Positions 25,344 to 47,196 of a stretch of DNA of 64,000 nucleotides are shown piece by piece. A program made the position numbers and the translations under genes. The number at the start of each line of letters is the position of its first letter. The first letter of the stretch is position 1. The notes beneath the pieces are model-generated. The model had not been told where the DNA came from, searched no databases, and worked only from the letters and a program-made list of their open reading frames with translations. This stretch comes from Cyanophora paradoxa CCMP329. Its lineage: Eukaryota; Plantae; Glaucophyta. The DNA is taken from NCBI GenBank assembly GCA_004431415.1, contig QPMI01000522.1, positions 186,001 to 250,000 of the forward strand, written 5' to 3'.

Positions 25344-25499
25344 GGAGGCGTACGTGTACATGTCGCGGCCGGCGACGCGGCCGGCGGCGGAGCGGGCGCG
25401 GCTGCGGGCGGAGCCTCGCGATCGGAGGCGGCCCCGCGGGCCCTCGCGGCGCGCGCCGGCGCCGCCGCCGTCCACGCCGCTCGCTTCCAGGAGAACCCC
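25344..25499 (+). pseudogene. Decayed duplicate of the 3' end of gene 19734-22335 (left half; continues at 50526-50870)
   Basis: Aligns with 22199-22320 with small insertions. Confidence 0.85.
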
Positions 25500-25817
25500 A
25501 CCAATTGCGCGACCTTCCCCACTACCATTCTCAGTAAGCCCATTATCCATTTTCAAATTTCTCAGTAAGGCTCAGTAACAAATTATAAATTAGCACTGTA
25601 TTTTTCAAACATCTAACCTCTCCTTACTGAAACCAATCACGAAATCCTTCCATTCTTCATTTTTCTAATTCCTTACCATTCCCAGTAAGCCCTAAAACCC
25701 TCTCTCGATTTCTCAGTAAGGACAGTGAGACCCCTATTTTTACGAAATGTTCCCGATCGTTTCCAAACTGTTTTCAGTTACCCAAATTGAAAAATCAAGG
25801 TGACCCCCACCGATAGC
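25495..25817 (+). repeat. Left terminal inverted repeat (outer block)
   Basis: 25594-25817 is a near-identical reverse complement of ~50198-50421; outer ACCCCACCAATTGCGCG matches 50494-50511; repeated CTCAGTAAG motifs. Confidence 0.92.
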
Positions 25818-25880
25818 GTAAATCAACATATGAAATGCGTTTATCCCCACTTAAAGATTTCCCGCTATATAGCTATAAAG

Positions 25881-26204
25881 ATGCCGAGCAATCAACTCCC
25901 ACTACCCAAAAGTAAGCAATGCACTATCTGCAAAGTAGATAGACCTGCATCGTGTTTTGGTTTGCGTAAATTAAAAACTGGTAATGTCGCATTGAATCCA
26001 AGATGCATCGAGTGCAACCGCGACTATCACCTTGACCTGTATCACAAAGTCTTAAAAACGCGTCCGAAAATCGAAGTACAATCGAAAATATGCCCCGATT
26101 GCAAGATTGAGAAGCCTGCAAGCGAGTATAATAAAAAACAAAGCACGAAGGATGGTCTCTACTACAAATGCCGACAGTGTTATAGTGAGACTCGGACGAG
26201 CTAA
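25881..26204 (+). CDS. Tandem CxxC...CxxC zinc-finger protein (107 aa)
   Basis: Two repeats K.C..C....PAS.[FY]......G....C..C; ATG preceded by TATAAAG. Confidence 0.7.
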   Translation: MPSNQLPLPKSKQCTICKVDRPASCFGLRKLKTGNVALNPRCIECNRDYHLDLYHKVLKTRPKIEVQSKICPDCKIEKPASEYNKKQSTKDGLYYKCRQCYSETRTS

Positions 26205-26420
26205 TTTATGATTTTAAAATGAGATTTGTATTTTTTAAAGCAAGTTTGTGCTGCCGAAAATGCCCACCTGCACAAACTTGCGAGATCAAGGTAAGCCCCA
26301 CCGACGAAGTACGACGATAGACCACGATTAATCGCAACTGGAACCACTCGCGCCCCGCCCACTATGCAAGATACATGCCTTTCTTATGCATGCTCTATGA
26401 AAAACCAATTAATTTAGACT

Positions 26421-26684
26421 TCATTCCTCAGCAACTGTATTATATTCAATTGCTTTCTTCACAGTTCCCCTTTGGAATGCCTGTAACACAATGGCTTCCT
26501 TTGAGGTTGGTATTTGAACTCCACCTGAGATGCAAGAATGGATTTCTTTCTGAACGATCTCTTCAATTGCAATTCTTGCCCTGTTGTGGGCAGCATTATC
26601 AATCCAATCCTGAACAGAGGCGGCGCAATATTCCATTCCCAACTTTTCGATATCAGAGAGAACCACTTGGTAAATATTCGACAT
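26421..26684 (-). CDS. Small phage-type protein, probable fibre assembly chaperone
   Basis: SVQDWIDNAAHNRARIAIEEIV...GVQIPTSKEAIVLQAF resembles small proteins I recall next to C1q fibres in tailed phages; lies directly downstream of the fibres. Confidence 0.55.
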   Translation of the reverse strand: MSNIYQVVLSDIEKLGMEYCAASVQDWIDNAAHNRARIAIEEIVQKEIHSCISGGVQIPTSKEAIVLQAFQRGTVKKAIEYNTVAEE

Positions 26685-26706
26685 TTCTTAAACTACCATA
26701 AGAAAA

Positions 26707-27726
26707 TTAAACGATGCTTATTAATTCTCCTGAGAATGCTGTGCTACTTGCATAGGAAGCGACTGAATTTGTAACAAGTGTCACAAATTCGTTTTGTGCA
26801 AGATTGAGAATGCAAGAGAAACACAGTGCTTTATGTGTGCTTGAGGCATTGTGAACTTGCGAAATGCTTAATCCCCCAGGATCGACATCATTAACCCTAA
26901 GAAACAATTCAATAACAGAAGTTGTGGTTGAAGAAGTGAATACTGAAAATCGATAGTGTCCCGCAACAGGTGCTGTGAACCTTCCAGTTGATGTGCTGAA
27001 TGAGTTGGTATTGTTTACTCGAACTGTTGCCCAGTTTATAAGAACAGCAGAACTTGTAGCAGTGTGGTTATAACCAAGTTGGATGGAAAATCGTGGATGT
27101 GATGTTTTGAGATAACACCCAGTATTAAATGTCAAACTATTGGCTTCCAGAGTAGCAACAGTGTTACTATTTCGTTTCAGAAGAAGGTCTACATTGGCTC
27201 CTGTATCGATTTCCGGTGTAACAACCTTGGTTGTTGCTGTGATTGTGGACTGTGAGGCAATTGGTAGTGAAATACCAGCATTAGCAGTTACCAATTCTGT
27301 AAAGGTGCTTGTTCCTGTAATACTCACCTGATTTGCTGTTAGGGTTCCATCAACCCTTGCCCCATCTCCAATGTAGGCACCTCCACTTCTTACCACAAGA
27401 GCAGAGTTATTTATTGTGTTGTCAAAGGTTACTATTTTGGGTGTGGTGACCCCTCCCATATCATCATAAATTGTGGAATCTGAGACTATCTGACCTGATT
27501 GAACTTGGTTCTTGTTTGAAACTATTAAACCTGTGGTTCTCACCTTTCCATTATTGCGATCACATCGAATTTCTTTGCATCTTATCACAGAATTCTGAGA
27601 AAACGAATCGGCACCTGTTGTTTCAGTGCAAATAAAACCAGGGGTTGCATCTGTTACTGTGTGGTTGAGTTGATGTATTTTGGGGGCGGCGTAACAGAAC
27701 ACAGGAACAGCTATTTGAGTGGTCAT
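26707..27726 (-). CDS. Fibre protein with C-terminal C1q domain (paralogue A)
   Basis: FSTSTGRFTAPVAGHYRFS...ILNLAQNEFV C1q signature; beta-rich shaft. Confidence 0.85.
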   Translation of the reverse strand: MTTQIAVPVFCYAAPKIHQLNHTVTDATPGFICTETTGADSFSQNSVIRCKEIRCDRNNGKVRTTGLIVSNKNQVQSGQIVSDSTIYDDMGGVTTPKIVTFDNTINNSALVVRSGGAYIGDGARVDGTLTANQVSITGTSTFTELVTANAGISLPIASQSTITATTKVVTPEIDTGANVDLLLKRNSNTVATLEANSLTFNTGCYLKTSHPRFSIQLGYNHTATSSAVLINWATVRVNNTNSFSTSTGRFTAPVAGHYRFSVFTSSTTTSVIELFLRVNDVDPGGLSISQVHNASSTHKALCFSCILNLAQNEFVTLVTNSVASYASSTAFSGELISIV

Positions 27727-27748
27727 AATTTATATTATATGGATAATA

Positions 27749-28819
27749 TTATGAAGAGCTGAGAAGCATACATCCAAAGAACCATCTGATATTATAATAT
27801 GAAGAAGCTCCACCACTGACACTATATGATATTCTGATGGAATCATTAGCTTGAAGGTCAACGATTATTTCCAACCCATTGTTTGCATACACAGATGGAT
27901 AATTATTATTAACTTCAATTCCAGATGAGCTTCCGTTTTTCTGTAAAAATGTTGTTATAATACCTGGTCTTCCAGCCGTATGACAGGATCCACTAAATGT
28001 GACAAGATAGTTTCCTGTAACAGGGGCAGTAAAAAGCCCTGTCGCAGGGTCGAAATGATTCCCTTGGTTCACTATGACTCCTGTTGATGGATATATATTA
28101 ATTGAGGGCATGGTTGCAGTTATTAACCCATTTGGTTGCTGTTTTGTTGCAAAGAAACGAGGGTGACCACTTAATTTCAGATACTTGTAGTCAGGAAGTG
28201 TGAGATGTTGAACAGTTGTATTATCTGTTTGAGTAGTTGTTTGGAGAGAAAAGATTGTGTCCCCATTCCTCTTGTAATTCATGACCATGTCACTCATGTT
28301 ATCAATCTCAGGTGTGTTCAACCTTGTTGTAAGTGTGAGAGTTCCATACTGAATACTCCCTGAAAGCCCACCATTGAAGTCCATAAACCCGCCAAAACTA
28401 CTTGTCCCACTCACAGATAGTTGATTTGCTGTGACAGTTCCTGCTACATTTGCTCCATCTCCAATGTAGGCTCCTCCACTCTTGACTACAAGAGCGGAAG
28501 TATTACTTGTGTTATTGAAAGTAACTATCTGTGCTGTGGTGACTCCACCCACATTATCATATATTGCTGAATCCTGGACTACCTGACCTGCTTGAACTTG
28601 GTTTTTATTCGCGATTATAATGCCTGTGGTTCTAATCTTGCCTCCATTTCGATCACATCGAATTTCTTTGACCCTCAGTATACTGTTCTCTGTGAAAGAG
28701 GTATTACTTGTAGTTTCAGTGCAAATATTCCCAGGTGAAGAGTCGACTACTTCATGAGAGGTGCTGTGTAGTGATTTTGCTGCAAGTTCATAGTTTGGGA
28801 TTTCCAATAGAGAGGTCAT
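27749..28819 (-). CDS. Fibre protein with C-terminal C1q domain (paralogue B)
   Basis: NQGNHFDPATGLFTAPVTGNYLVTF...VDLQANDSI; N-terminal ~130 aa homologous to paralogue A. Confidence 0.85.
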   Translation of the reverse strand: MTSLLEIPNYELAAKSLHSTSHEVVDSSPGNICTETTSNTSFTENSILRVKEIRCDRNGGKIRTTGIIIANKNQVQAGQVVQDSAIYDNVGGVTTAQIVTFNNTSNTSALVVKSGGAYIGDGANVAGTVTANQLSVSGTSSFGGFMDFNGGLSGSIQYGTLTLTTRLNTPEIDNMSDMVMNYKRNGDTIFSLQTTTQTDNTTVQHLTLPDYKYLKLSGHPRFFATKQQPNGLITATMPSINIYPSTGVIVNQGNHFDPATGLFTAPVTGNYLVTFSGSCHTAGRPGIITTFLQKNGSSSGIEVNNNYPSVYANNGLEIIVDLQANDSIRISYSVSGGASSYYNIRWFFGCMLLSSS

Positions 28820-28838
28820 CTTTATATTAATCAAATAG

Positions 28839-30407
28839 TTAAATTGCGACAGCTGTGTAATGAATTGTAACAGTAATGCCTGGTCTGTCGTGTGAACTTA
28901 ATGGAACTATCTCAAGCTCACACGTGAAATAGCTGCTGTAAACATTTTTAAGAGTTACAGACATACGATAGTCGAAGGCTGTCTCGTTGTGTTGTATACC
29001 CGTTGTTACAATAGGAGGGTTAGCAAAGCTGGCGTTGAATTGGATAGTGAGATTAAAGCGAGTGTAAGGGTTTGCCCATAGATAAGGAGTATTGTAAACA
29101 TACTTACCTGCTTGAATTTTCCCATTAAAATATGTATTGAGTTGACTGGAAAGATCCGCTTCTGTAATACATCTACTAATAGTCTGATTATTGGAAGGGT
29201 TCATAGCATAGAAATTTCTTGCATAAGCATTTCCACGAACAAGTAGGGTCTTGTCCTGGTAATATGCTATGTTATCAGTGGGAATAGTCGAATTGTGGAA
29301 ACTCCAAATCACAGGAGGATTGGGCATAATATTTGGGTCATAATCGAGAAAGTAACCTGATCCAATAAGAAGGTTTGCATTTGCTGTAATGTTATTAGCT
29401 GTAAAGGGATCAAGAGTTGGTCTATTGGTCAAATCATTGTAGTTGCCCGAGAACATCGCGGGTTTATTATAGATATCTGTATTCCAATCATGAGTGTGAC
29501 CTACCAATGAAATGTTTCCGAGATCTGTTATCTGGTCTTTGGTATGAGTGTGTGCAAAGTCTGTAATCTCTGCCTTGGTGTGGGTGTGACCAACATATGC
29601 AACATTTCCGAGATCTAAAATCTCTGATTTAACATGAGTGTGAGCGAAATTCGTAATGTCTGCTCGGGTGTGATAGTGTGCAAAATCTGTTATTTGGGAC
29701 TTGGTGTGAGTGTGTGCAAAATCTGTGATTTCTGCCTTTGTGTGGGTGTGTGATCTATTATTAAGGTCGAGGAAACTCCCCGAAAATGCAACAGGGTGTA
29801 GATTTGCTGCGGTGGGTTTATTAATGAGATCATTATAGTCTCCTGTAAATGAAACGGTTTTCAGTTCCCCCCTCCCTACATAATCCGAAGGGAGATCGAT
29901 TTTAATAGGCATTATAGCTGGATCATCTGGGATCACATACTCTCCACCTGTGTGAACAACAGGGTATCTTCGAATATACATATTGGATGCACCCATGAGA
30001 GGTGCCACAATGGGCACATCCGAATTAACGAGATTGCAAGTGATGGAGAAAATGGTTTTGGGGGCAAACAGATTGCAATCAAAGGTAATCGTGGCGGGAT
30101 CAATAGTAGGATCGACGTTTGAACAGATCTGAAACATCCACCCACCCACACAGTTGCAATTTAGATTTCGAAAGACTGTTCCCGCCATTGCATCCACATA
30201 GCCAATCCCATTTGCTATGTCATATATGTGACCAAACTCGTAACCAAAAATGTCATTCCACAGGTTGGAAGCCATAGCTCCCATCACATACCCTTTTAGA
30301 TCTACTATCAGGTCATTGGATTCACTGGGTATATTGGCATGGGTTATATAAAATTGATTATCCAAGACAGCATTCTTTATTGTCGTTTCTACTATGGGTT
30401 CAGTCAT
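28839..30407 (-). CDS. Phage-like tail fibre with HxH repeats and H-type-lectin-like tip
   Basis: About seven HTHTK..ITDF-type repeats, G[DN]YNDL.N[KR]P motifs, C-terminal IQF..SFANPPIV...VTLKNV. Confidence 0.8.
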   Translation of the reverse strand: MTEPIVETTIKNAVLDNQFYITHANIPSESNDLIVDLKGYVMGAMASNLWNDIFGYEFGHIYDIANGIGYVDAMAGTVFRNLNCNCVGGWMFQICSNVDPTIDPATITFDCNLFAPKTIFSITCNLVNSDVPIVAPLMGASNMYIRRYPVVHTGGEYVIPDDPAIMPIKIDLPSDYVGRGELKTVSFTGDYNDLINKPTAANLHPVAFSGSFLDLNNRSHTHTKAEITDFAHTHTKSQITDFAHYHTRADITNFAHTHVKSEILDLGNVAYVGHTHTKAEITDFAHTHTKDQITDLGNISLVGHTHDWNTDIYNKPAMFSGNYNDLTNRPTLDPFTANNITANANLLIGSGYFLDYDPNIMPNPPVIWSFHNSTIPTDNIAYYQDKTLLVRGNAYARNFYAMNPSNNQTISRCITEADLSSQLNTYFNGKIQAGKYVYNTPYLWANPYTRFNLTIQFNASFANPPIVTTGIQHNETAFDYRMSVTLKNVYSSYFTCELEIVPLSSHDRPGITVTIHYTAVAI

Positions 30408-30444
30408 TATACTCTATTATGGAATACTACAAAAATTAAGGTTG

Positions 30445-33400
30445 TTACATAACGTTTGGAACATGTTCATATATTCTCCCTTCTCGCTGTGCCATTTCCG
30501 CCATAAAGTCTCTATCATTGTTCATCGTTTGCTCTGCCAATTCTTGTGCTCGTGATTTTTTGGGTGCTGCCCTATTTGCTGGTGGTCGGTCAGTCCTCAC
30601 AACACTAAGACCATGCCCCTCGGCTGATCTCACCTCTAACCCCACATCTCCTTCGGCTGTTTGGGTCACATTCAGTTCAGGCGTTGAGTATTTATTTCCT
30701 GCACCTGCAATGGTTCTATCTAAGCAAGCACAACAAAGAGCTCGAAATTTGTATGCAAGCACAAGCCCAAGAGCACCGAGAATCGGCAAGAGAATCATAA
30801 GCACTAACGTTCCTGGATTAGTTCCCGGTGCCCCGACTGGATTTGTAGGATTCGTGGGATTATTAGGTGGTGTGTTTGGATCTGGATTAGTTGTAGGGGG
30901 ATCTTGTGAATCGGGATCTGGGTTAGGCTGGTTCGGATTTGGATCGTTTGGTGGCGGTTCCGTCGACCCTGCTAATGATGTTGGCGCTGTGTATGCATTC
31001 GCAAACACGATGGGAGCCGTCGCTGGATTTCCTGTGGAGGATCCTGAGATTGCACCATAGGTATCTGCGAGATACTTGTATAATTCCTGTGTCACAGGTG
31101 GATTGCTCACAGATCGACACACCCAAATATTGCATGTGGTATCATAGACTGTGTCCCTGATAAAAGGCGGTAGAGCTGTCCCACTAAATGACTCAAAGAG
31201 TCCATTTCTCGATAGCAACCTATGGGCTGCATCACAGTTCCCACCCTCAAAGTACTTTGAAGCTGAAATTGCACCTTGAACATAAATATTGCATGTCGAG
31301 TGCATTCCAATGTTATTTAGGTTAGGAGTGTATCTGTCGTCGAGCCGGACAGAGCATACCCATGGGGAAGCGGTTTTAATATATTTCTTATCGCCCACTT
31401 CGATTACATCTGTATTTGGGTGGCTGTCAAGCTGAGTCCAAACAGCATCATATCTGAAAGTGTAATAAACTAAGAGACCATCTGTGGACGATGTGAAAGC
31501 AAAGAAGGTCATAAAGTCCGTGGATCCAAAGAAGTCAGCATTGGTCGATGTAAGGGTGACTCTGGGATAGCTCATGTTGACAGTCTCAGAAGGATATGGA
31601 ATATATGAGGTGTAATTACGATTGAAAAGATAATAGTGAAATCCATCTGAGACATTCGAGTGAGTGGGCAAGGTGACTGTTAAGGTCTTACTGCGATCCT
31701 CAAACGTTTTCTGTATGACAATGTTGCAAGTATTAATATATCGAGAATCGAAAAAGTAATTATTTGTGACTCTATTATCGATCAAAGTCGCATTGGTTCC
31801 ATTAAACACGAAATTCTGCCCATTGATCCTCGTAGTGTGAATGTCGGTAACATCGAGAGGATACCTTATTTTTAATCGATCTTCGGGGTCAAATCGCGGA
31901 ATAGTTCCTGTTGCCTTCCAACTGATAGTAAAGGGAGGAGCAAGGGACACTGCTGGGATAACAGAGAGATTAAATTTCGAAAAATACAACCCAACAGGGT
32001 ATGATGTCAGAGCATATGTCACTGTTGCATTTCCTACAAGTGTAAAGCCGGTGGTTGTTATGTTAGTTGCAACAAATGGGGAGTAGCCGGCTGGTGCATT
32101 TTGAAGTGATGTAGCTGACCCATCATTGACCACATACAAATTCGTGTCTGTTATTTCAATAGTAGGAGGGGAAACAAATGGTGTCTCAAATGTGAAATTA
32201 AAATTCGCTGGAACCCCTGCAAGATATCTATATGAGACCGATCCTATTTCGGATGCCTGGAATACTTTGCTTCCACTCTGCACTACATTACTTGTGTCTT
32301 TCACATTGTGGTATGAGATGCTGGGAGTTGGGGAGAGCACCAACGAAATAGCATCTGGTAAATCAGACTTTGTTATATACAGCTCTTTAAGATACTCCTT
32401 TCTAAAAGGCGCGGTCAGATCTCCAATAGTAGCCGATGAACCTGCGACCACAATATTACAGGTGTTTGCACTCAAAGAGTAAACTGTGTTCCACCTTAAA
32501 GAATTCGCCCCAAGATCGAAATTCTGTGAGAAGGGCACGATATTGCTACCTTGTAAATCTCGGTAAACCTTTACTCTGGGTTTGCTATCGAATACAGGGC
32601 TAATGTAATTGATGTTAAGAGTGAAACTAATAGTAGCTTCGGAACTCAATGAGTTGTTTCGGATGATAAGTAAATTGTATGTCTCGTTAATGACAAACGA
32701 AACCTGAAACCCTGTGGAGGTGACATTTTGGATAAATGCTTTATTAGATTCATTATTGTTATAGATAGGATTATAATAAGTAGTGTGATCCACCAATGAA
32801 ACAGTGGGTATATTCGTCTCGAAACCTGTGACACCCAACTGATCCCAAGTGAATGTATATGTAGGTTTGCCTACATAAGCGACATAGACCCCATTTGCGA
32901 GCTGCTGAGGGTATCCCTCGACAGTGTAGGTCTCAGTTTGCGAAACCGAGCGGGAAAGGTTACTATTATAGTCGGTGTAGCTGATCAGTGCATTATCATT
33001 GGTGAGAATCTGATTAGGTCGGAGTGAGTGATTAAATGGAAGGATTAAATTGGAGGCAAACATGGAAACTCCATGCACCTCTGACCATCTCAGATTCGAG
33101 AGACCAACTCGGTATGCGTTATCAATAGAAGGGTAAATGTTCCTTTTCGATAGAATATGGGCTAAGGTAATTGCAAGCGCTCCATCTGCTGCAAACAGTG
33201 CATTAATTTCGGACTGCAAAGCCGCGATCTCGGTTGTGTGGGTCGTGAGGGTTCCATCCTGGCTGGAATCTTTGGTGTTCTTGCTCCTTTCAAACTCCAA
33301 AAACGCCTTTACGATGTCCTTGCCTAAAAGATCGTTTATATTGTCTCTGGTTATGTGAACATGGTCTGTTCTCAGTGCCTGTTTCTCTGTGGTAAAAGCT

Positions 33401-34167
33401 GGAATTTCCTCTGCAAATGATATAGTCGTTTTATCAAGTGCTAAGGATCTCACATTCGGAGCATTGGCGCCAATTATATCCACAACGTTCCCATTTTCGA
33501 CAATTTCTAAGGTCGGTTTCGCGGGGTCTAATGTGAAAACACCCTCTGTTATCTGGGGAACCGATTCGCTCTTCTGAATCACAAAGGATTCGATGTTTAG
33601 GTTACAGGTTGCGACATTGGTGGCGAAAAACGACTCGGAGTTGAGCGAGTTTACATTTAGGGTATCCGTAGTGATGTTACTTGCTGTAATGTTACTCGTC
33701 GTAAGATTACCTGCTGAGAGATCATGGACGACCTCTACCTTTGTTTTCCGTGTGGATACTCCCGCTATAAGTGTGCTATTATCCACGATTCTCATAGCTG
33801 CATTTTGGAAACCGCTCTCATCTTGAATGAAGAAGTTTAAGCGACCTCTATCGAATGCTTTCGGGATGTTCCTACGATTATATCGCACCGTTTTCGGTAG
33901 CTGGCGGGTTGCCTGAATGCTGGCGACTCTGTTTCGTTCGTTATCATCAAGTAAAAAGTCGATTCCAAGTTTATGATCCCCTTTCTCGACGTTCATTAAC
34001 TGCAAAGCTGCGGGTCTGCTCGGTGTTCCACTGACTGGATCTTCGCGGTCTGCATTGTAGTTTATTCTCAGAGACCCGCGAATTTCAGTGTTTACCTGAT
34101 CAGTGTCCTCTATCTGAGTGGTCGAATTAATAACTCGTGCATCTGGTCGCGGATTCAGGAACGACAT
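30445..34167 (-). CDS. Large fibre/adhesin-like protein with C-terminal transmembrane anchor (1240 aa)
   Basis: Start MSFLNP after an AT-rich leader; I.P.....LG....RW..V fibre motifs, repeated TCNI, PNP/PT linker, TM LVLMILLPILGALGLVLAY, CCAC, short tail. Confidence 0.75.
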   Translation of the reverse strand: MSFLNPRPDARVINSTTQIEDTDQVNTEIRGSLRINYNADREDPVSGTPSRPAALQLMNVEKGDHKLGIDFLLDDNERNRVASIQATRQLPKTVRYNRRNIPKAFDRGRLNFFIQDESGFQNAAMRIVDNSTLIAGVSTRKTKVEVVHDLSAGNLTTSNITASNITTDTLNVNSLNSESFFATNVATCNLNIESFVIQKSESVPQITEGVFTLDPAKPTLEIVENGNVVDIIGANAPNVRSLALDKTTISFAEEIPAFTTEKQALRTDHVHITRDNINDLLGKDIVKAFLEFERSKNTKDSSQDGTLTTHTTEIAALQSEINALFAADGALAITLAHILSKRNIYPSIDNAYRVGLSNLRWSEVHGVSMFASNLILPFNHSLRPNQILTNDNALISYTDYNSNLSRSVSQTETYTVEGYPQQLANGVYVAYVGKPTYTFTWDQLGVTGFETNIPTVSLVDHTTYYNPIYNNNESNKAFIQNVTSTGFQVSFVINETYNLLIIRNNSLSSEATISFTLNINYISPVFDSKPRVKVYRDLQGSNIVPFSQNFDLGANSLRWNTVYSLSANTCNIVVAGSSATIGDLTAPFRKEYLKELYITKSDLPDAISLVLSPTPSISYHNVKDTSNVVQSGSKVFQASEIGSVSYRYLAGVPANFNFTFETPFVSPPTIEITDTNLYVVNDGSATSLQNAPAGYSPFVATNITTTGFTLVGNATVTYALTSYPVGLYFSKFNLSVIPAVSLAPPFTISWKATGTIPRFDPEDRLKIRYPLDVTDIHTTRINGQNFVFNGTNATLIDNRVTNNYFFDSRYINTCNIVIQKTFEDRSKTLTVTLPTHSNVSDGFHYYLFNRNYTSYIPYPSETVNMSYPRVTLTSTNADFFGSTDFMTFFAFTSSTDGLLVYYTFRYDAVWTQLDSHPNTDVIEVGDKKYIKTASPWVCSVRLDDRYTPNLNNIGMHSTCNIYVQGAISASKYFEGGNCDAAHRLLSRNGLFESFSGTALPPFIRDTVYDTTCNIWVCRSVSNPPVTQELYKYLADTYGAISGSSTGNPATAPIVFANAYTAPTSLAGSTEPPPNDPNPNQPNPDPDSQDPPTTNPDPNTPPNNPTNPTNPVGAPGTNPGTLVLMILLPILGALGLVLAYKFRALCCACLDRTIAGAGNKYSTPELNVTQTAEGDVGLEVRSAEGHGLSVVRTDRPPANRAAPKKSRAQELAEQTMNNDRDFMAEMAQREGRIYEHVPNVM

Positions 34168-34210
34168 CCTCTTTATAAACAAAGAAGATATATAAGAAGT
34201 ATATAAGATA

Positions 34211-35704
34211 ATGAAGACCTGCCTCGCTTTGAGTGGAGGGGGGTCGCGCGGAATAATCGAGGCTGCTATACTGGCACAGATTGAAGCCCAAACCGGTAAA
34301 CGAATCCAACAGCTATTCGACTGCTTTGCGGGAACATCCACAGGTGGATTAATCGCGCTCCTATTGAATATCAAGGGAACCGATGGCGCCCCTAAATATA
34401 CTGCCACTGATATTCTCGCGCTCTACAAAGCGAAACTACCGCTGATTTTCGCGAATCCACGAGTGCTTACATCGATTGTACAGCGCCCAAAGTACGAAGC
34501 AACTAACTTAGAAGCGGTGGCTCTCGAACTCTGCGGCTCAGCGACCATGGCGGATCTCTATAAACCAACCATCGTGACTGCATTTGACACGATCTTAATG
34601 TCCCCCGTTTTTATTTCAAGCAACGATGAAGACATTAATGGGATGCTTGTGCGCGATGCTGCAAGGGCTACCTCGGCTGCTCCGACCTATTTCGAGCCGA
34701 AACAAGTCACAGTCGCCGGAAGAACATATTGTTTAATCGATGGTTGCATGAGTGGAAATAATTCGCCCGGGGTTTGCGGCTACACATTTGCCCGCACTTT
34801 ATTCGGAAACTCTTGCGAGGAGGAGCTTATCGTGGTCTCGATTACGGCGGGTCACGTCCAAGACGCCGATAAAGCAACCGCGGGATATTCGTATGACACC
34901 ATGAAAAATTGGGGGATCGTGCAATGGATGCTAAGCGCCACAGGATCGCCAATTCTCAGCATGTTCTTAGAGTCGAGTGATCTAAACGCCCACGTAAAGC
35001 TACTGGAACTTTTACCCAGAAACGATGATCAGAATTACGATCGCTACTATAAGCTGAGCGTTCCTTTACCGAAAGATAAAATGACCCTCGATACTATCAC
35101 AACGACGCACCTGCAATATTTGGAAACGGAAGCGCTCGCCTTTGTTTCCGCACAGCAAACGTATTTTAATGCGATGTATTCAGTGCTGACGATGAATATC
35201 TCAGAGGGCGATGTTCCCATAATTAATCTGTCCGGGTGCACAGATGTAAGCGCACCCCCGGAGTCTAACTGGGTGCCGCTCGATAATAGCGCCTTTATTG
35301 CGGAATTTGGCACAGCTTCTGATGCCCGCTGGTCAAATGCTACGGGGTGGGTGGGATTTACTAACCCGCCGCAAGGTAGTAGGTCGGGAGGCAATTACTT
35401 ACGCATCGATTTCCCGCGTCTGTTTATGCTTTCCTCTATAAAAATGAAGCCGGCTGCGAATGGAAACTACATTAAAACGTTTGAGATCGATTACCAATTA
35501 ACTCCGGGAGTTTCGGCGCTTGTAACATACACAGAAGCCGGCGCGACGAGAGTGTTTACCAATGCAAATCAAATAGCCGGAAGTGCCGATCCTGACGAAC
35601 ATTTCTTAGCAAACCCGAGATCTGTGAGAACCCTCGTAATCTGGGTGCTTACTACGAATGTAGCTTCGGCATGCCGAATTGATTTCGAGGGCTACTACGT
35701 GTGA
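34211..35704 (+). CDS. Patatin-like phospholipase fused to F5/8 type C (discoidin) domain
   Basis: GGGSRG, GTSTG, SAAPTYF, DG(C) motifs; C-terminal YLRIDF...IKTFEIDY...RIDFEG. Confidence 0.88.
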   Translation: MKTCLALSGGGSRGIIEAAILAQIEAQTGKRIQQLFDCFAGTSTGGLIALLLNIKGTDGAPKYTATDILALYKAKLPLIFANPRVLTSIVQRPKYEATNLEAVALELCGSATMADLYKPTIVTAFDTILMSPVFISSNDEDINGMLVRDAARATSAAPTYFEPKQVTVAGRTYCLIDGCMSGNNSPGVCGYTFARTLFGNSCEEELIVVSITAGHVQDADKATAGYSYDTMKNWGIVQWMLSATGSPILSMFLESSDLNAHVKLLELLPRNDDQNYDRYYKLSVPLPKDKMTLDTITTTHLQYLETEALAFVSAQQTYFNAMYSVLTMNISEGDVPIINLSGCTDVSAPPESNWVPLDNSAFIAEFGTASDARWSNATGWVGFTNPPQGSRSGGNYLRIDFPRLFMLSSIKMKPAANGNYIKTFEIDYQLTPGVSALVTYTEAGATRVFTNANQIAGSADPDEHFLANPRSVRTLVIWVLTTNVASACRIDFEGYYV

Positions 35705-35710
35705 CAGCGC

Positions 35711-36556
35711 TTAATCGGTGATCACTTCGAGCTGGAACGAGTATGAGAGACCGTTTATATCCGCAACAGAGCCCCGCCATTTTCGAAGCGAAATTGTGAG
35801 ACGATCTAAATCGAGTTGCGATGTGACATTTACGAAAGGGATGCTTGCGCTCGGTTCGTGGTAAAAGGAATATCTACCAAAGTCCGAGTTCATCTGAATT
35901 CGCAATAGATAGGAGTCGTCGAAATTGTTCTGTCTCCCAGTAACCGCTGCGAATTTGGTAAACGGGCGGAGCTCTTCGATATCAAGGTAAATATATGGAA
36001 TTGCATTAAAGTCGACCATTTTCGGGCATATAATCGCGTAGCGACTGGGGTAATCTCTGAGTGGAACCGGCACTGGTTCTGGTGTGCTGGCGTAAACCAC
36101 TCCGGGTTCTATGCCGAGACAGTCACAGAACTCCTGGTCTGAGGACTCTAATGTAAAAGGGCTATTCGGAGATGAGAACACGAAGCGGTTCGTAGACAGA
36201 GCGAGAGAATAGGAAACCGGGAAGAGACCGAGAGGATTAAAAGAACCGCCTGAAAAACCGAGTAAAGCATCACTGTTTAAAGCTCTCTCTTTCGGATATC
36301 GTTCGTTATCAGCATCGACGTAATAATAATCGTTTACGCTGGGAATCGGTGCTATCATTTTGGATGCGGGGATTACTGTGGGCTCTTCGTTCAAAAGCGT
36401 TATAGTTATTGTCTGATCGGGCGGAACAACATAAGAGCTATTGGGAATCTCAGCTGATAGCACACGAAATCGCCTTACATTATTAAGGCGCGTTTTCAAG
36501 TGCAGCACGCCATTTTCAAGGTCTCTACTGTCGCAATTTATTGTTATTCTTTTCAT
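35711..36556 (-). CDS. Minor capsid protein (penton) 1
   Basis: DSRD...NNVRRFRVLSAEIPNS...YIYLDIEEL...LDRLTISLR..RG..ADING...SFQLEV penton pattern. Confidence 0.8.
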   Translation of the reverse strand: MKRITINCDSRDLENGVLHLKTRLNNVRRFRVLSAEIPNSSYVVPPDQTITITLLNEEPTVIPASKMIAPIPSVNDYYYVDADNERYPKERALNSDALLGFSGGSFNPLGLFPVSYSLALSTNRFVFSSPNSPFTLESSDQEFCDCLGIEPGVVYASTPEPVPVPLRDYPSRYAIICPKMVDFNAIPYIYLDIEELRPFTKFAAVTGRQNNFDDSYLLRIQMNSDFGRYSFYHEPSASIPFVNVTSQLDLDRLTISLRKWRGSVADINGLSYSFQLEVITD

Positions 36557-36572
36557 AATCTATTATAGTAAG

Positions 36573-37499
36573 ATGAAAGAATACCTGAGCTTTTCGAGCG
36601 ATGATCGCGATGAGGAGTTTACTCAGCCAAACCAGTATGTAGTGACATTACCCCGTCGCTATGACAACGTAAAATCTGTGCGCCTGGTGCAGGCAACGGT
36701 TCCCAATGTTCTTTCGACCGTGACAAACGATATAGACGCGACTGGTGCAACCATCGAGCGCATGGAACTCTATTTCTCGGTCACAGCTTCGGATTCCGGA
36801 TTCGTGACCATCACAATCCCCAAAGGATTTTACACCAAAGACGACCTTGCCGCAAAAGTCACAGAAAGACTCGAAGCAGCTCGCCTTTCAGATTTCGGTG
36901 GAAAATATATTAAATGCCGCTATAATACTACTTCAAAGATCTATGAGTTTTTCAGTGATAGTAACTTTTGGTTCAAGTTCTCCAAAGCTTCCCCTGAAAC
37001 ACTCAGAAAATCCAGTAATCGCAAAGCAATCGCTAAGAAACTCGCAATATTCGGTTTCAAAGATATTCAGCTATATGTTTACGAGACATTTACCCCTTTT
37101 GCAAGCGATACATTCCTTGTGTTTAATCCTGGGACGGGAACTGTGACACTCAATCGACGCATTCGCGGCTATACTCGTGGAGATGAGACCCCGGCGGCGA
37201 TGATCTGGCTATATATTGATGAATTTGCGCCGTTTATTCGCTCAGTCAACAAGCACGTCGATGGTTATTTCATGCGCATTCCAATCCCACAGGAACTCGA
37301 ACATGGTGATATCTACCACTTCGACACGTCCACTACGGTGCCTCTCATTCGTGAATTCCGCGAATTAAAATCTTTCGACCGCCTCACGATTAAACTCATC
37401 GACCATGATGGCGCTCTCTTAGATTTCGGGGTTTGGGCGCATTATTTCACTTTTGAAATCGAAACCTACGACGCACCGCCCGAAATGAATTTCTATTGA
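36573..37499 (+). CDS. Minor capsid protein (penton) 2
   Basis: SSDDRD...YVVTLP..YDNVKSVRLV...IPKGFYT...FDRLTIKLIDHDG.LLDF...FTFEI. Confidence 0.82.
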   Translation: MKEYLSFSSDDRDEEFTQPNQYVVTLPRRYDNVKSVRLVQATVPNVLSTVTNDIDATGATIERMELYFSVTASDSGFVTITIPKGFYTKDDLAAKVTERLEAARLSDFGGKYIKCRYNTTSKIYEFFSDSNFWFKFSKASPETLRKSSNRKAIAKKLAIFGFKDIQLYVYETFTPFASDTFLVFNPGTGTVTLNRRIRGYTRGDETPAAMIWLYIDEFAPFIRSVNKHVDGYFMRIPIPQELEHGDIYHFDTSTTVPLIREFRELKSFDRLTIKLIDHDGALLDFGVWAHYFTFEIETYDAPPEMNFY

Positions 37500-37546
37500 G
37501 CCCTGTAAATTATTTTCTGATCCCAAAGATAAGAGAAGAAACGCTC

Positions 37547-38860
37547 ATGGAGACTAACAGCCAATTCCAGCGCCCAACGCTGAAATCTATGCTCACCACC
37601 GATGACTACAAGGATTATTTCCTAAACAAGTCGCTGGTCATTGGAACGTCCTCTGGCACTAAGCCACTTCGAGTTCTGGTCGCCCCCGACACTGAGCCAC
37701 CCAGCGCTCTCGGCAACCGAGTTGTCTTCAAAATCCCCCGCTACCATTTCCTGAATGGTCTCGCGCTGCAACTCGATCTTAACCCGATCACCCTCACTGA
37801 TCTCACGAATGGTGTCGCTGGAACTACTGGCTACCTTCGCGTTATTGGATCGCTAATTAAGCGCATTGAAATCTCTCACGCTTCATTCCGCTATGTTGTC
37901 CCAGAGGATTTCGTCACCCAGTATTTTCTACTGATGACCGAACAGGGCGAACTCGATAAGAAACTTCGCTATGTGGGTGGTCTTGTCGGAACCGCTGGTA
38001 ACACTGTCGGTGGAACCTACGAAATCGATTTACCCTCTCCTTTCGAGAAGGCGATGTTCCCACTTTGCGCTCTGAACTCTGAGATCGTGGTCGAAATCGA
38101 ATTCAAGGCGATTGGTGATGGTATCATTGAGGATGTAAACAATGTTGGCAATATTTCGGTCGTAAACAGTGGTGCTTCCCTTCAAGTGCTGAAACCCCGC
38201 ATTATCTGCAAGGTCGTAAATGCCGATGAGGCGGTTGTATCTGAGACCATTGCCCGTGTTAAATCGACTGGCATCGCGATCCCCTACAACGAAATCGGTT
38301 TCCTCCACACAGATTTCCAGCCGACCGCCTCCGGTTCGCGAGTCAATCTCTCGCAACTCACAGGTGCGGGTCTCATCCACACTCTCGTATTCTCTGTGCG
38401 CCAAAACGCGAAGACGAAGGTGAACAACGGAACTCTCTCGGTTCTGGCTCCTCGTGCACTCCGAACCAACGCTGTGAACTTCTATGTGGAACTCAACAAT
38501 AACCGCCTTTACTCGAATACTTCGCTTCCTCTCATGATTGCCGCGACCGAACTTCAAGATAAATATAATTCGGCGATCTTTACCGAGAGCACAAGCTACC
38601 CCGCTCTCACTGGCATTTACTTCGGTGCTGGAAACGGAAAGGCGTCGCTTCTCAACCAAGAGAACACGGGCTACATCGATGCCACAGGCACATCGGCGTT
38701 CGATCTGGTCTTCGAATTCAATGGTGTCACAGCCGGTGGAGTCGGTAATGAGGAGTGGTATGCGGGTGCCGCTTATCAGAAGATGCAAATTCAGTGCATT
38801 GCCCTCGCTCATAACATAATGATAATTACCGCCGACGGAATCCGAAGAGTATCCGCATGA
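37547..38860 (+). CDS. Major capsid protein (double jelly-roll, PLV type, 437 aa)
   Basis: VVFKIPR..FL..L.L, LIKRIEI, IDLPSPF...FPLCAL..EIVVEIEF, C-terminal ALAHNIMII..DG; lies between penton and ATPase. Confidence 0.85.
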   Translation: METNSQFQRPTLKSMLTTDDYKDYFLNKSLVIGTSSGTKPLRVLVAPDTEPPSALGNRVVFKIPRYHFLNGLALQLDLNPITLTDLTNGVAGTTGYLRVIGSLIKRIEISHASFRYVVPEDFVTQYFLLMTEQGELDKKLRYVGGLVGTAGNTVGGTYEIDLPSPFEKAMFPLCALNSEIVVEIEFKAIGDGIIEDVNNVGNISVVNSGASLQVLKPRIICKVVNADEAVVSETIARVKSTGIAIPYNEIGFLHTDFQPTASGSRVNLSQLTGAGLIHTLVFSVRQNAKTKVNNGTLSVLAPRALRTNAVNFYVELNNNRLYSNTSLPLMIAATELQDKYNSAIFTESTSYPALTGIYFGAGNGKASLLNQENTGYIDATGTSAFDLVFEFNGVTAGGVGNEEWYAGAAYQKMQIQCIALAHNIMIITADGIRRVSA

Positions 38861-38975
38861 TTACCATATTCAGTCTCATTTTTACAACATTTTCATCGTT
38901 TTGGAAATTTCCAGTAAGAGATACCCACAAAAAGCATTTAAAGACAAGCCAACAATCAGTATATTAAGAAACAAG

Positions 38976-39923
38976 ATGACTCCCGCTCTGACTCACGATC
39001 AATTCGTATCTCGGTCTCAGGAAAGATTCCCAGGTAAATTTGCATATGAGAAGGCGAAGTATAAAACATACTGCTTTGACAAGGTCACTTTGATTTGTCT
39101 GACATGTAACACAGAATTCGAATGTCTGCCTTCAAACCATTTGAAAAAAGGTGGATATGGAGGATGTCCCCAATGTTGCAAGGACATGCTCCACAAAGAA
39201 AGAGCCACTCCAAAAGACGTGTTTTTGGAACAGGCTCGATCAGCTCATGGAGACCTATATGATTATGACTTGACGAATTACAGAAACTGTCGTTCTAAGA
39301 TTTCTATTCACTGCAAACAGTGCGGGCACGACTTTGAGAAGACTGTGTGTGAGGTTGTGCGAAGCGAAGGATGCCCGAAATGTAGTTTCCAAGCGAAATG
39401 CAAGAAAAGAAGTAAGCCACTCGATATATTTTTGAACGAAGTCAGTGAAGTTCATGGAGATCTTTATGACTATTCAGAGACAGAATACACAAACAAACGC
39501 ACACCAGTTACCATTAAATGCAAGAAATGTAGCTCAAAGTTTTCATGCCTACCACAGAATCATCTACGGGGGACTGGTTGCCCCCGCTGCAAATTTTCGA
39601 AAGGAGAAATTGCCGTTGAACAAGTCTTGAAGTCTTTGGAGCTTACATTTAAACAACAGCACCGTTTTGCGAACTGCAAAAATAAAAACACGCTACCTTT
39701 CGACTTTTACATTCCTTCATTGAAGATTGCAATCGAGTATGATGGGCGCTTGCATTATGAGCCGGTCGATCACTTTGGGGGTCAGGAAAGATTAGATACG
39801 ATTCGGCTTCACGATGGAATAAAGAACCGCTACTGCGAAGCTAACAATATTAAGCTCCTCCGCATACCATACACTGAAACTGATATTAAAGGTTGCATTG
39901 AGCGCTTCCTCTCATCGCTCTAA
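38976..39923 (+). CDS. Zn-ribbon-repeat endonuclease (DUF723-like repeats + PD-(D/E)xK/DUF559-like nuclease)
   Basis: Three HGD.YDY...VTI.C..C...F....NHL.G.GCP.C-type repeats; SKGE...LPFDFYIP...AIEYDG..H. Confidence 0.85.
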   Translation: MTPALTHDQFVSRSQERFPGKFAYEKAKYKTYCFDKVTLICLTCNTEFECLPSNHLKKGGYGGCPQCCKDMLHKERATPKDVFLEQARSAHGDLYDYDLTNYRNCRSKISIHCKQCGHDFEKTVCEVVRSEGCPKCSFQAKCKKRSKPLDIFLNEVSEVHGDLYDYSETEYTNKRTPVTIKCKKCSSKFSCLPQNHLRGTGCPRCKFSKGEIAVEQVLKSLELTFKQQHRFANCKNKNTLPFDFYIPSLKIAIEYDGRLHYEPVDHFGGQERLDTIRLHDGIKNRYCEANNIKLLRIPYTETDIKGCIERFLSSL

Positions 39924-39968
39924 TTACCACAGTCAGTCTTATTTTTCTATTGTTTTTATAGTGAAAGA

Positions 39969-40835
39969 ATGCAAAAAGGGACAACGCCCATGGATCTCGA
40001 AGAATGGAACCCGAAACAGAGGGTGAAACTTCCCGCACGATTTCTCCTATTGGCGAAAACCAATTGTGGTAAATCGGTATTCTTAAAGTGGCTGATCAAA
40101 GAACTCGAAGACCAGATCTCGTATGTTCTGGTTTTCTGTCCTACGAGTTTTAACGGTTTCTGGGGTCAAATAACAGATGAAGTGCATGATACCTGGAAAC
40201 CGGAATACGTAGAGTCGATCATAGAAGCCCGCAAAAAGGCTATCATTGCGGGTAAGAAACCAAAGAATATTCTTATCGTGCTCGACGATTGTTTGGAGTC
40301 CGGAACTATCGATCTTTCGCGCGATCATTTGCTAAATAAATTGATGGCGCAAGGTCGTCATACGTTTTGTAGCGTCGCTTTAATATCGCAGAAATTAACA
40401 AAGCTGTCAACTATCATTCGCAGTAATGCGGAGTATATCATATTCCTCAGCTGGTCAAACATGCGAGAGTTCGAAGCATATCACGAGGAATTCGGCAACA
40501 TGGATAAGGAGAGTTTCAAACGTATGTTCCAAGAGTTTTGTCATAGCTACCAAGCGATCATTCACGATAATACCGGGTATTCTGTGCGATGGTGGGTCGA
40601 AAAAGCCGATATGATCGATGACCATCCGTTTACTAAATTCCACAAGCGGGCGGCTTTTGAAGAAAAGAAGCGCAAACAACAAGAGGAGCAAGCGACAAAA
40701 CCGCCGCCTGTCAAAGATTCGACAACTGTCTGTCGAACTTTATCCAAATTTGAGCGTGAGCTTGAAGGTATCCCAAAACTTTCGCAAATTTCGCCTAAGA
40801 AAAAGAAAATGTTAATCAAATGTAAGAGAAGATAA
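39969..40835 (+). CDS. A32-like genome packaging ATPase
   Basis: Walker A AKTNCGKS, Walker B ILIVLDD, GRH...ISQ, IRSNAEY. Confidence 0.92.
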   Translation: MQKGTTPMDLEEWNPKQRVKLPARFLLLAKTNCGKSVFLKWLIKELEDQISYVLVFCPTSFNGFWGQITDEVHDTWKPEYVESIIEARKKAIIAGKKPKNILIVLDDCLESGTIDLSRDHLLNKLMAQGRHTFCSVALISQKLTKLSTIIRSNAEYIIFLSWSNMREFEAYHEEFGNMDKESFKRMFQEFCHSYQAIIHDNTGYSVRWWVEKADMIDDHPFTKFHKRAAFEEKKRKQQEEQATKPPPVKDSTTVCRTLSKFERELEGIPKLSQISPKKKKMLIKCKRR

Positions 40836-40837
40836 TC

Positions 40838-41521
40838 ATGGTCTACCGAAAGAAGCCTCAAACCATTCAAACTGTCGCTTCTGGTAATCCTAATCGCGGA
40901 CTTGAAGAGTCTGGGTTAACGTCGGGTGGCGGTCTCGAAATGCCCGAATATCTTATAGACACTTCGCCAGAGGAGGTCGCCAAGCAAGAGGCGATTATTG
41001 CGAGTGCCACCGCGGACAAGGGAAACCAAGATAGCGGTAAACGCCAAATGGACGATTTAGCTACTGTAAAACCACAGATTGGAGGCGGCTCTGTTGATGA
41101 AGCAACCGACAAAGTACTAAAAGCGCAAGTTGTTGCAAGCCAACACAAAACGCAAGACGTCCCGAAAGCCGCCGAAACCGAGCTTAAAAAGCGCGGATCC
41201 TATCAAAAACACACGGTTCCTGTCGACGTTGTCATGAGCTTCGAAGAGAAAGTGCGAGACCTTGAAACGAAAGTCTCTAACTACGAGAAATGGATGCAAG
41301 ATTATAACGAACGCAAGAAATTAAAGGGGCTCGTGAAGAAAGAGATCTCCAAACTCGGATTAAAGCAAAAAGTCGACGTAGAGGAGATTAAAAAGGAGGA
41401 AAAGACAGATGCGCAAGCCGTAACTCGTCAGCAATCGGTCGCCCCGCAATATGCACATATTGTGCCGACCGCACCCGTGAATTATGCCGCAATGCTCGGT
41501 GGTAAACGCCATATCCGCTAA
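40838..41521 (+). CDS. Hypothetical coiled-coil protein
   Basis: 227-aa ORF 2 bp after the ATPase stop; charged helical C-terminal half. Confidence 0.65.
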   Translation: MVYRKKPQTIQTVASGNPNRGLEESGLTSGGGLEMPEYLIDTSPEEVAKQEAIIASATADKGNQDSGKRQMDDLATVKPQIGGGSVDEATDKVLKAQVVASQHKTQDVPKAAETELKKRGSYQKHTVPVDVVMSFEEKVRDLETKVSNYEKWMQDYNERKKLKGLVKKEISKLGLKQKVDVEEIKKEEKTDAQAVTRQQSVAPQYAHIVPTAPVNYAAMLGGKRHIR

Positions 41522-41676: not shown

Positions 41677-41725
41677 TCCCTTTTATTTTCTCCGATATTT
41701 AATACGTTGCTTCCTTGTAGGGTCG

Positions 41726-47178: not shown

Positions 47179-47196
47179 ACAGGGTTAATTAGAAGA

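Follow-up and report, generated by a model that had tools for sequence, protein, structure and literature searches.

A probable attachment-gene cluster of phage-type fibre modules in a Polinton-like virus integrated in the genome of Cyanophora paradoxa

The window analysed here, a stretch of 64,000 nucleotides from Cyanophora paradoxa CCMP329, contains an integrated Polinton-like virus (PLV), whose boundaries are set by a step in GC content, terminal inverted repeats and a target duplication (Table 1). The GC content of the element is 40–50%, as compared to about 55–80% in the host; the inverted repeats align over 349 columns at 84.5%, and patchy similarity extends as far as about 900 bp; a target duplication of 6 bp, CACGCC, flanks the element on both sides and is present singly at an uninterrupted paralogous (empty) site near 22298–22303. 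Polinton-type elements are defined by a length of 14–40 kb together with terminal inverted repeats and a target-site duplication, and the size, repeats and 6-bp duplication found here all agree with that definition, as does the presence of both an A32-type packaging ATPase and an integrase, which are expected of a PLV or Polinton-type virus. An exact-sequence collection contained none of 10 element proteins, and queries with the capsid, ATPase, minor capsid or C1q N-termini returned no related virus locus.

Table 1. Features of the integrated element, in window coordinates
Feature	Position	Strand	Remarks
Integrated Polinton-like virus	25479..50526		25,048 bp
87-aa protein	26421..26684	-	Member of an unnamed tailed-phage family following C1q fibres; likely fibre-assembly helper or cap
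339-aa C1q-tipped fibre	26707..27726	-	Head about aa 213-335; Pfam C1q E 1.7e-9; phrog_15750
356-aa C1q-tipped fibre	27749..28819	-	Tandem paralogue, predicted homotrimer; Pfam C1q E 2.3e-8
522-aa fibre	28839..30407	-	Unique N-terminus, YNDL.NKP motifs, HxH phage-tail repeats, H-type lectin tip
1240-aa orphan	30445..34167	-	Fibre-type motifs, two weak H-lectin-like domains, Pro/Asn stalk, 100-aa tail
Predicted transmembrane helix of 1240-aa protein	30754..30810	-	aa 1120-1138; basic residues and cysteine cluster follow
Patatin-like lipase	34211..35704	+	Pfam Patatin E 7.6e-22; extra C-terminal domain
Two putative minor capsid (penton) genes	35711..37499		281 and 308 aa
Putative major capsid protein	37547..38860	+	437 aa; label inferred
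A32-type packaging ATPase	39969..40835	+	Pfam Pox_A32 E 1.6e-10
1436-aa replication protein	42868..47178	+	Degenerate family-B polymerase motifs fused to superfamily-1 helicase
Retroviral-type (rve) integrase	47373..48367	+	Pfam rve E 1e-13; split over two frames here

Several non-fibre genes bear on how the element might enter cells. The patatin-like lipase gene, likely encoding an entry enzyme, stands head-to-head with the fibre genes; its C-terminal domain, which by eye alone looked discoidin-like, had no match in domain searches, and that reading was dropped. The 281- and 308-aa proteins are related to each other (E 2e-6) and weakly match DUF5901 in Pfam; their size, position and motifs make them putative pentons. 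The 437-aa protein has five relatives among 1.84 billion representatives, one of them a Cyanophora paradoxa protein (39%), and no Pfam or PDB match. In size and place the putative capsid genes would suit a double jelly-roll major and a single jelly-roll minor capsid protein, with no PDB matches.

At one end of the element, positions 26421–34167 hold five co-oriented minus-strand open reading frames of 87, 339, 356, 522 and 1240 aa, spaced by 19–37 nt. This cassette takes up 7,747 of the 25,048 bp (30.9%), in line with the original prediction of five co-oriented genes over ~7.7 kb and about 30% of the genome. Its members differ considerably in how far their parts can be traced to other viruses.

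The 522-aa protein has the traits first ascribed to it, namely an HxH-repeat fibre with YNDL.NKP motifs and a lectin-like tip: there are seven HxH motifs, and YNDL.N[KR]P is found at residues 191 and 323, with a degenerate copy at 212. The H-lectin domain (PF09458; cut-off 24) scores 21.2 bits in the whole protein and 26.3 bits when the tip is scanned alone, and PF12789, carried by many of the 120 homologues listed for this protein, scores 25.3 bits here, below its cut-off of 27. Loci with the YNDL motif are mostly tailed-phage tail regions, and the HxH profile weakly matches the phage-like fibre chain FtbO (E 0.0013). The protein matches phages only through its repeats, and among the homologues listed the matches span 6–42% of its length. 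There was no PDB sequence match, and the single-chain AlphaFold pLDDT is 33.

The two smaller fibres were expected to be C1q-tipped, and both are, scoring 38.4 bits (339 aa) and 34.7 bits (356 aa) against a Pfam cut-off of 23.7; PDB C1q domains were also matched, by sequence and by fold. The 339-aa protein is 44% identical to the 356-aa protein over its length, and the two genes are a local duplication. The C1q genes show less summed contig depth than the 522-aa gene, a measure that cannot rank genes.

Modelling as a trimer, proposed from the start as a check, favours the fibre reading for the 356-aa protein: the three-copy model scores 0.87 as compared to 0.00 for the best of three controls, although such models lie outside the calibration of the mark, which 21 of 30 solved pairs and none of 23 single chains attained (17 of 29 and 0 of 30 for eukaryotes). 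At least 85% of contacts recur between runs, partner pLDDT is 71–75, and contacts run along residues 91–225 and the head. The protein is thus predicted to be an intertwined homotrimer with an elongated shaft and three C1q heads at the tip, although the pass may stem from the model's memory of solved C1q trimers. Single-chain pLDDT is 37 outside the head, and fold searches were read for the head only; there, animal C1q domains and a tail chain of cyanophage A4 match about equally well, at Z scores of 8–9 (8.7 for the A4 chain, with rmsd 2.4 over 103 residues).

The C1q heads are 29–42% identical to phage heads. Outside the heads, nothing in phages matches the first 200 residues of these fibres (best E 0.26), the whole fibres have no match in named phages, and no homologue of the 356-aa protein was found among sequences of near length. 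C1q domains have been proposed as variable receptor-binding tips in marine phages (PMC3909814). C1q fibres also appear common in giant viruses, according to a low-confidence model, so the C1q head alone does not name the donor.

The clearest phage connection lies in the 87-aa gene, whose product is 41–61% identical to phage and metagenome proteins among the matches listed and scores 0.95 to Uroviricota clusters in the Atlas. It has no match in Pfam, named PHROGs, NCBIfam or PDB, and its family was not found in prokaryotic genomes. The immediate surroundings of the family, drawn from the best 80 of 128 and the best 80 of 264 matches, are strikingly one-sided: with clustering at 95% identity, a gene with a Pfam C1q head lies directly upstream in 54 of 67 clusters and downstream in 5 of 47, counts that are not independent events since the clusters share kinship. 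A custom C1q profile gives 59 of 69 and 5 of 49, and clustering at 70% gives 9 of 11 and 0 of 9, within the same best-80 sets. The gap between fibre and small gene has a median of 22 nt in 59 clusters and is 22 nt in the window. The order C1q, C1q, small gene recurs in cyanophage S-SRM01, and C1q, small gene in Limnohabitans phage DC33; other fibres in the phage loci of this family likewise have small genes of their own behind them. The place behind a fibre gene's 3′ end is the usual one for tail-fibre assembly genes such as lambda tfa and T4 gp38, and the arrangement typical of tail-fibre chaperones, a small gene just after that of the fibre it serves, is seen for the 87-aa family. The predicted fibre-then-small-gene layout of tailed phages is therefore borne out by this conserved pairing and is inherited from, or shared with, phages. 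Since its relatives in aquatic phages mostly lie directly behind the same kind of fibre, the 87-aa gene is a likely fibre-assembly helper; an early reading that gave it little chance of being fibre-linked has been overturned.

How far the helper label should be taken is a separate matter. We infer the chaperone role from gene position only, and the "chaperone-like" of the original prediction was put too strongly, since it draws on gene order and no chaperone family matches. The protein has no sequence or profile similarity to Phage_tail_APC, Caudo_TAP/Tfa or Peptidase_S74; hhalign gives its family a probability of 0.2% against Phage_tail_APC and below 1% against alignments of five neighbouring small genes. 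Alternatively, it may play no part in folding and serve as an adaptor or spacer in the structure of the particle, or block receptors, its gene travelling alongside that of the C1q fibre. That lack of likeness to known chaperones speaks for such a role, as do the 13 of 67 clusters in the best-80 sets without a C1q gene ahead (in 4 of the 13 the upstream gene is a Phage_tail_APC chaperone) and the differing sequence directly upstream of the 87-aa gene in other copies from the same organism, with loose ends at position 26685 in two of three DNA-like runs; the strong preference for a place just past the 3′ end of the fibre gene, with a short gap of constant length, speaks against it, and we regard it as rather unlikely. 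In those other copies the C1q-fibre/87-aa pair may be uncoupled or joined to another tip, a hint of tip swapping among element copies.

The least certain member of the cassette is the 1240-aa protein. It was predicted to be a giant membrane-anchored fibre, and the anchor holds up: there is one hydrophobic 19-mer (mean hydropathy 2.64), with the next best among the 16 element proteins at 1.41. The label of giant fibre was put too strongly: it draws on motifs and on two H-lectin matches below threshold (E 0.011 and 0.007), and no homologue was found, with residues 1–800 searched among near-length sequences; nor was there a PDB sequence match. Most likely, this is a tail-anchored spike or adhesin whose fibre part, when synthesised, lies on the cytosolic face of the membrane. 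It might, with somewhat lower likelihood, be a membrane protein produced in the cell during infection or lysogeny, such as a decoy, an exclusion factor or a protein that recruits membranes, and not a virion fibre. The membrane helix, the basic and cysteine-rich tail, the Pro/Asn stalk, the 21 N-glycosylation sequons (the 1436-aa polymerase has 9) and the orphan status all suit that idea, and related small viruses are not known to possess a membrane. Set against it are the lack of a signal peptide, the two weak H-lectin-like domains, two IxP..(D/R)xG....RW motifs, a form that also occurs in 16 of 4,036 open reading frames of the fetched phage loci, and Atlas neighbours that are phage proteins at 0.78–0.84, which we treat as a lead only.

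Taken together, the cassette is best read, with a probability of about 0.6, as a PLV attachment-gene cluster: a mosaic of N-terminal anchors that are specific to the virus, joined to shafts and binding tips like those of tailed phages, with the 87-aa protein as a likely folding helper or cap for the C1q fibres. The three soluble fibres would sit on the vertices of the capsid, attached through their N-termini, and the element does have two putative penton genes; the C1q and H-lectin tips would bind host-cell surface molecules, probably glycans; and the patatin would then help breach the membrane. During assembly, the 87-aa protein would bind the C1q tip, in the manner of the small genes that follow fibres of other types. 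The two genes at the end of the cassette were probably acquired jointly, out of the pool of aquatic phages, and the other modules separately. More tentatively, and at somewhat under even odds, the 87-aa family would consist of undescribed, dedicated C1q-fibre helpers widespread in aquatic tailed phages, one of which crossed into the PLV together with its tip; the element copies would keep a repertoire of tips and repeats, and the anchored fourth fibre would imply a lipid-containing particle.

The modules are of phage type, as originally proposed, but the uptake of a whole multi-fibre system from phages is unsupported, because the N-termini are unmatched, the 522-aa protein resembles phages in its repeats only, the 1240-aa protein is an orphan, and giant viruses have C1q fibres too. 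Transfer of all five genes en bloc from one tailed phage would accord with their common orientation, tight spacing and GC content of 40–44%, as compared to 45–51% in the capsid and patatin genes, and S-SRM01 does have a similar run of fibre genes; yet apart from those unmatched parts and the local C1q duplication, a protein anchored in a membrane would be out of place in the tail of a phage, and we consider this origin very improbable. In a tree of the 87-aa family made by a quick method (77 rows, 91 columns), the window gene sits on a branch that is long and unresolved, and no donor is named.

Attachment might also be directed at something other than the host: the fibres could ride on a helper giant virus or on bacteria that the host contacts or eats. 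Phage-related tail proteins of a virophage are reported to bind Synechococcus lipopolysaccharide (PMC12724248), and among the matches listed the 87-aa gene has its nearest named relatives in a cyanophage and in a phage of freshwater betaproteobacteria. However, published PLV work interprets fibres of this sort as pointing to independent entry into the host, the adjoining lipase fits direct entry, the modest identity of the C1q heads to phage heads means that specificity need not persist, and no helper virus is known for the element; we judge this quite unlikely.

The attachment-cluster reading has close precedents, and the surprise implied by the original prediction was too high, as phage-type fibres with chaperones in eukaryotic viruses are already in print for PLVs (PMC12220804) and prasinoviruses (PMC12906663), and phage-like fibres for a virophage (PMC12724248). 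Section 13 and Fig. S6 of PMC12220804 share with the window integrated PLVs and PF12789 fibres, including one from a Cyanophora paradoxa PLV that is built as PTR-PTR-H_lectin, the architecture of the 522-aa gene, a fibre followed by a separate chaperone gene, and glaucophyte PLVs with patatin fused to a carbohydrate-binding domain, as the window lipase also has an extra domain. Their chaperones, in contrast, are Peptidase_S74 and Phage_tail_APC, neither found in the window element; those sections describe no membrane-anchored fibre member, and C1q is absent from the main text and two supplements searched. In virophage DSLV2 (PMC12724248), consecutive phage-related fibre genes with cyanophage relatives lie beside a minor capsid gene, much as in the window, but its tripartite tail proteins form a heterotrimer with a T4 gp37-like collar domain (PF07484) not found in the window, and the available text describes no small partner gene. 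The prasinovirus hypervariable region (PMC12906663) likewise clusters phage tail fibre and tail assembly chaperone genes, although in a giant virus and with chaperone families that differ from the 87-aa gene. A PLV fibre protein, the single gp36-like Ltf of Gezel-14T, has been found in purified particles (10.1101/2022.07.28.501842); the main texts of that paper and of PMC12906663 do not mention C1q. The closest parallels in gene order, S-SRM01 (gp008–gp010) and DC33, with C1q fibre gene(s) followed by an 87-aa family gene, differ in their bacterial hosts, in carrying the fibres on a tail and in N-terminal halves unrelated to those of the window.

A pairing of a C1q fibre with an 87-aa-type helper was not found in the literature. 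The gene order described here gives a likely function to an abundant phage family unnamed in Pfam, PHROGs and NCBIfam, and suggests that fibre genes can pass between phages and eukaryotic viruses in company with their partner genes. For studies of how PLVs recognize and enter protist cells, the element supplies small, expressible tips (two C1q and one H-lectin); as the host has apparently been sequenced many times, the question of the receptor is directly testable.

All five cassette genes (87, 339, 356, 522 and 1240 aa) lie on the minus strand with gaps of 19-37 nt and occupy 30.9% of the element, as the original prediction of five co-oriented genes filling about 30% of the genome had it; the cassette stands head-to-head with a patatin gene and adjoins putative capsid genes. 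It sits inside a low-GC island (40-50% GC, against ~55-80% in the flanks) and belongs to a Polinton-like virus (PLV) of 25,048 bp, which has terminal inverted repeats at both ends and is flanked on both sides by the hexamer CACGCC, present once in the uninterrupted target-site paralogue near 22300. Short AT-rich hairpins, seen by eye in two gaps between fibre genes, are possible transcript ends.

Coordinates of features in the window and in viral or phage loci fetched for comparison (L handles)
Feature	Coordinates	Strand	Remark
Element	25479-50526		PLV
Insertion site	25347-25478 / 50527-50585		host repeat ending a short reading frame
Uninterrupted paralogue of host repeat	22197-22345		81-83% identical, 3 kb upstream
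Zinc-finger/HNH-like ORF	25830-26204		124 aa
AT-rich hairpins	26685-26706, 27727-27748		
Homing-endonuclease-like gene	38976-39923		between putative capsid and ATPase
11-mer TATTTTCTCCG	41684, 42264, 42833, 48589	+	
Polymerase-helicase fusion	42868-47178		
rve integrase	47373-48367		two frames in window copy
AdoMet decarboxylase	48954-49220		apparently without 5' part
Tandem 34-nt repeats	49598-49699		three, near right end
Viral contig with repeat fibre	L002:1-14676		16 kb, 27% GC
Fibre + small-gene examples	L037:3009-4472, L053:4946-5964, L061:6287-7603		cyanophage fibre islands

The two fibres of 339 and 356 aa both pass the Pfam C1q cut-off, as predicted; with 44% identity over their whole length, they are a local duplication. 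A three-copy model of the 356-aa protein (residues 60-356) scored 0.87 in 3/3 runs, whereas the best of its 3 controls scored 0.00; a three-copy job lies outside our score calibration, in which the mark was reached by 21/30 solved pairs and 0/23 single chains (17/29 and 0/30 for eukaryotes). The runs shared at least 85% of contacts (pLDDT 71-75), which follow residues 91-225 and the head. The proposed trimeric fibre is thus supported, as a prediction, for the 356-aa protein; since solved C1q trimers exist, the pass may partly reflect memorised structures. In a low-confidence single-chain model the head aligns equally well to animal C1q domains and to a cyanophage A4 tail chain (Z 8.7, rmsd 2.4 over 103 residues), and viral structure library matches comprise tailed phages and giant viruses (klosneuviruses, pandoraviruses, medusavirus, prasinovirus); because of this spread, the head names no donor. 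Compared with phage heads from the fetched loci, the heads show 29-42% identity; for the first 200 aa of the C1q fibres these loci offer no match (best E 0.26), and whole C1q proteins searched against named phages returned nothing. Capture of the whole cassette en bloc, for which the phage-like run of genes would speak and against which these N-termini would, seems very improbable.

The 87-aa gene matches no named family in the libraries searched. At 41-61% identity, and over ~80-90% of its length, its product aligns with proteins from cyanophage S-SRM01, from Limnohabitans phage DC33 and from uncultured viruses. Its family set, drawn from the best 80 of 128 viral and the best 80 of 264 metagenome hits, holds 179 ORFs in 175 loci, some contigs appearing twice, and forms 77 clusters at 95%. 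With clusters of too little flank dropped, a Pfam C1q end occurs in the gene directly upstream in 54/67 clusters and downstream in 5/47. Our own C1q profile, itself seeded from the fetched family loci, gives 59/69 and 5/49 at 95%, and 9/11 and 0/9 at 70% clustering (Fisher p 3e-14 and 3e-4, for clusters that are kin). The fibre-to-small-gene gap is 22 nt in the window, equal to the family median, and S-SRM01 likewise has two C1q genes and then the small gene; such a tandem C1q pair stands ahead of the family gene in 7/73 rows with room. Among 13 exceptions to the upstream rule, 4 place the small gene behind a gene of the Phage_tail_APC chaperone family, and other fibres in these loci have their own small genes behind them. 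Shared gene order and one-sided bias therefore support the predicted fibre-then-small-gene layout of tailed phages; its chaperone half is carried by analogy, by which the 87-aa protein would be a chaperone. By profile, the family shows no relation to Phage_tail_APC or to four further neighbour alignments. A non-chaperone role for the 87-aa protein is, on balance, unlikely. In cyanophage fibre islands (L037-L059), a small unnamed gene of its own (phrog_5784, phrog_9114, phrog_6228) lies behind each fibre type, which suggests that there are several other fibre-helper families not yet characterised.

The family tree does not resolve a donor. In a sample of 26 loci (41 ORFs), tailed-phage genes for adaptor, head, sheath or terminase occur in seven and a T4 gp9/10 domain in one more; the others have phage-type or unclassified genes, and with the libraries used a giant-virus origin of the unclassified loci is possible. 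Element core genes match nothing in any of the 175 loci.

The 522-aa protein has the predicted HxH-repeat architecture: seven HxH motifs in 12-residue steps, YNDL.N[KR]P at the flanks, then an H-lectin tip. Its 471 homologues match through the repeat only (query coverage 6-42% among the 120 matches listed), and the named ones (13 records) are jumbo-phage tail proteins at ~30%. A motif search gave 36 viral loci; among the 24 scanned (73 ORFs), most have tailed-phage head or tail genes. One, L002, has genes for an A32-like ATPase, a primase of the D5 type and a fibre in which the YxDL.NKP motif occurs eight times; it is probably another PLV or virophage with this type of repeat, so such repeats already circulate outside phages.

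The role of the 1240-aa protein is the weakest point of the fibre reading. The predicted membrane anchor holds, as a single helix at 1120-1138 after a Pro/Asn stalk and before a basic, cysteine-rich tail, with no signal peptide; the fibre label draws on two copies of IxP..(D/R)xG....RW and two sub-threshold H-lectin-like domains. Homologue searches found none, and Atlas phage clusters at 0.78-0.84 serve as a lead only. A cell-membrane role in place of a virion fibre, which the helix would suit and the fibre-type motifs would not, is the less probable reading and still a serious one.

All 20 runs with this stretch carry a single organism code, and their contigs contain many diverged copies of the element; variation was read from contigs only, in three DNA-like runs. 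Loose ends at 29398 in 3/3 runs hint at other sequence after residue ~336 of the 522-aa protein in some copies, and joints at 29489-29752 at a repeat number that varies. A joint between 27402 and 28518, present in one contig of one run, would fit a copy with a single C1q gene or a third paralogue. In two runs, loose ends at 26685 lead to different sequence upstream of the 87-aa gene, which could hint at a different tip or uncoupling.

Besides patatin, the element encodes an A32 packaging ATPase, an HNH-type nuclease, an AdoMet decarboxylase and an rve integrase that is divided between two frames; a further gene joins a degenerate family-B polymerase and a superfamily-1 helicase in one protein. 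This fusion protein, in which the family-B motifs are altered and an endonuclease-VII-like domain lies at the C-terminus, resembles the inactive-polymerase/helicase fusion that 10.1101/2025.10.09.676808 reports in Tetraselmis PLVs. The split integrase and the apparently shortened decarboxylase reflect decay or assembly error. From size, position and motifs, we take the 437-aa gene to be the major capsid gene and the 281/308-aa genes minor capsid genes; none of the libraries searched confirmed this, and the 437-aa protein has just 5 relatives among 1.84 billion representatives, the sole named one from Cyanophora paradoxa (39%), which makes a glaucophyte the likely host. The zinc-finger/HNH-like ORF breaks up the terminal repeat region on the left, has no equivalent on the right and is bypassed by joints in other copies; contigs of the homing-endonuclease-like gene hardly differ from the window and have low depth, which would fit its presence in few copies. 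The 11-mer TATTTTCTCCG stands just upstream of non-structural genes and before no fibre gene, a candidate early promoter.

Beyond the observed domains, gene order and phage synteny, and the predicted 356-aa trimer, we infer that the three soluble fibres most likely dock on the capsid via virus-specific N-termini and would present C1q and H-lectin tips to putative targets on the host surface, while patatin would aid entry and the small protein would assist or cap the C1q trimer. Use of such tips for hitch-hiking on a giant virus or bacteria is rather improbable.

In the portions available, earlier papers describe bacteriophage-like fibres in PLVs, among them 19 pairs of a phage tail repeat (PTR, PF12789) gene with a Phage_tail_APC gene and, in a C. 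paradoxa PLV, a PTR-PTR-H_lectin protein that may be our 522-aa gene (PMC12220804), a fibre protein in PLV particles (10.1101/2022.07.28.501842), a tail fibre in Tetraselmis PLVs (10.1101/2025.10.09.676808), a virophage with three cyanophage-related tail genes (PMC12724248), phage-type fibres and chaperones in giant-virus islands (PMC12906663, PMC13620141), C1q tips in marine phages and injection systems (PMC3909814, PMC12923769), and fibre genes in related mid-size viruses (PMC8502044). Within this literature and the further records listed by searches, which leave out many subscription papers and preprint supplements, we found no account of C1q fibres in a PLV or of the 87-aa partner family. 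The observation is real and forms a coherent picture, most of it of a kind already in print. Two things appear new: the pairing, in a PLV, of a C1q fibre with a partner gene that is unnamed and shared with phages, and the membrane-anchored 1240-aa orphan.
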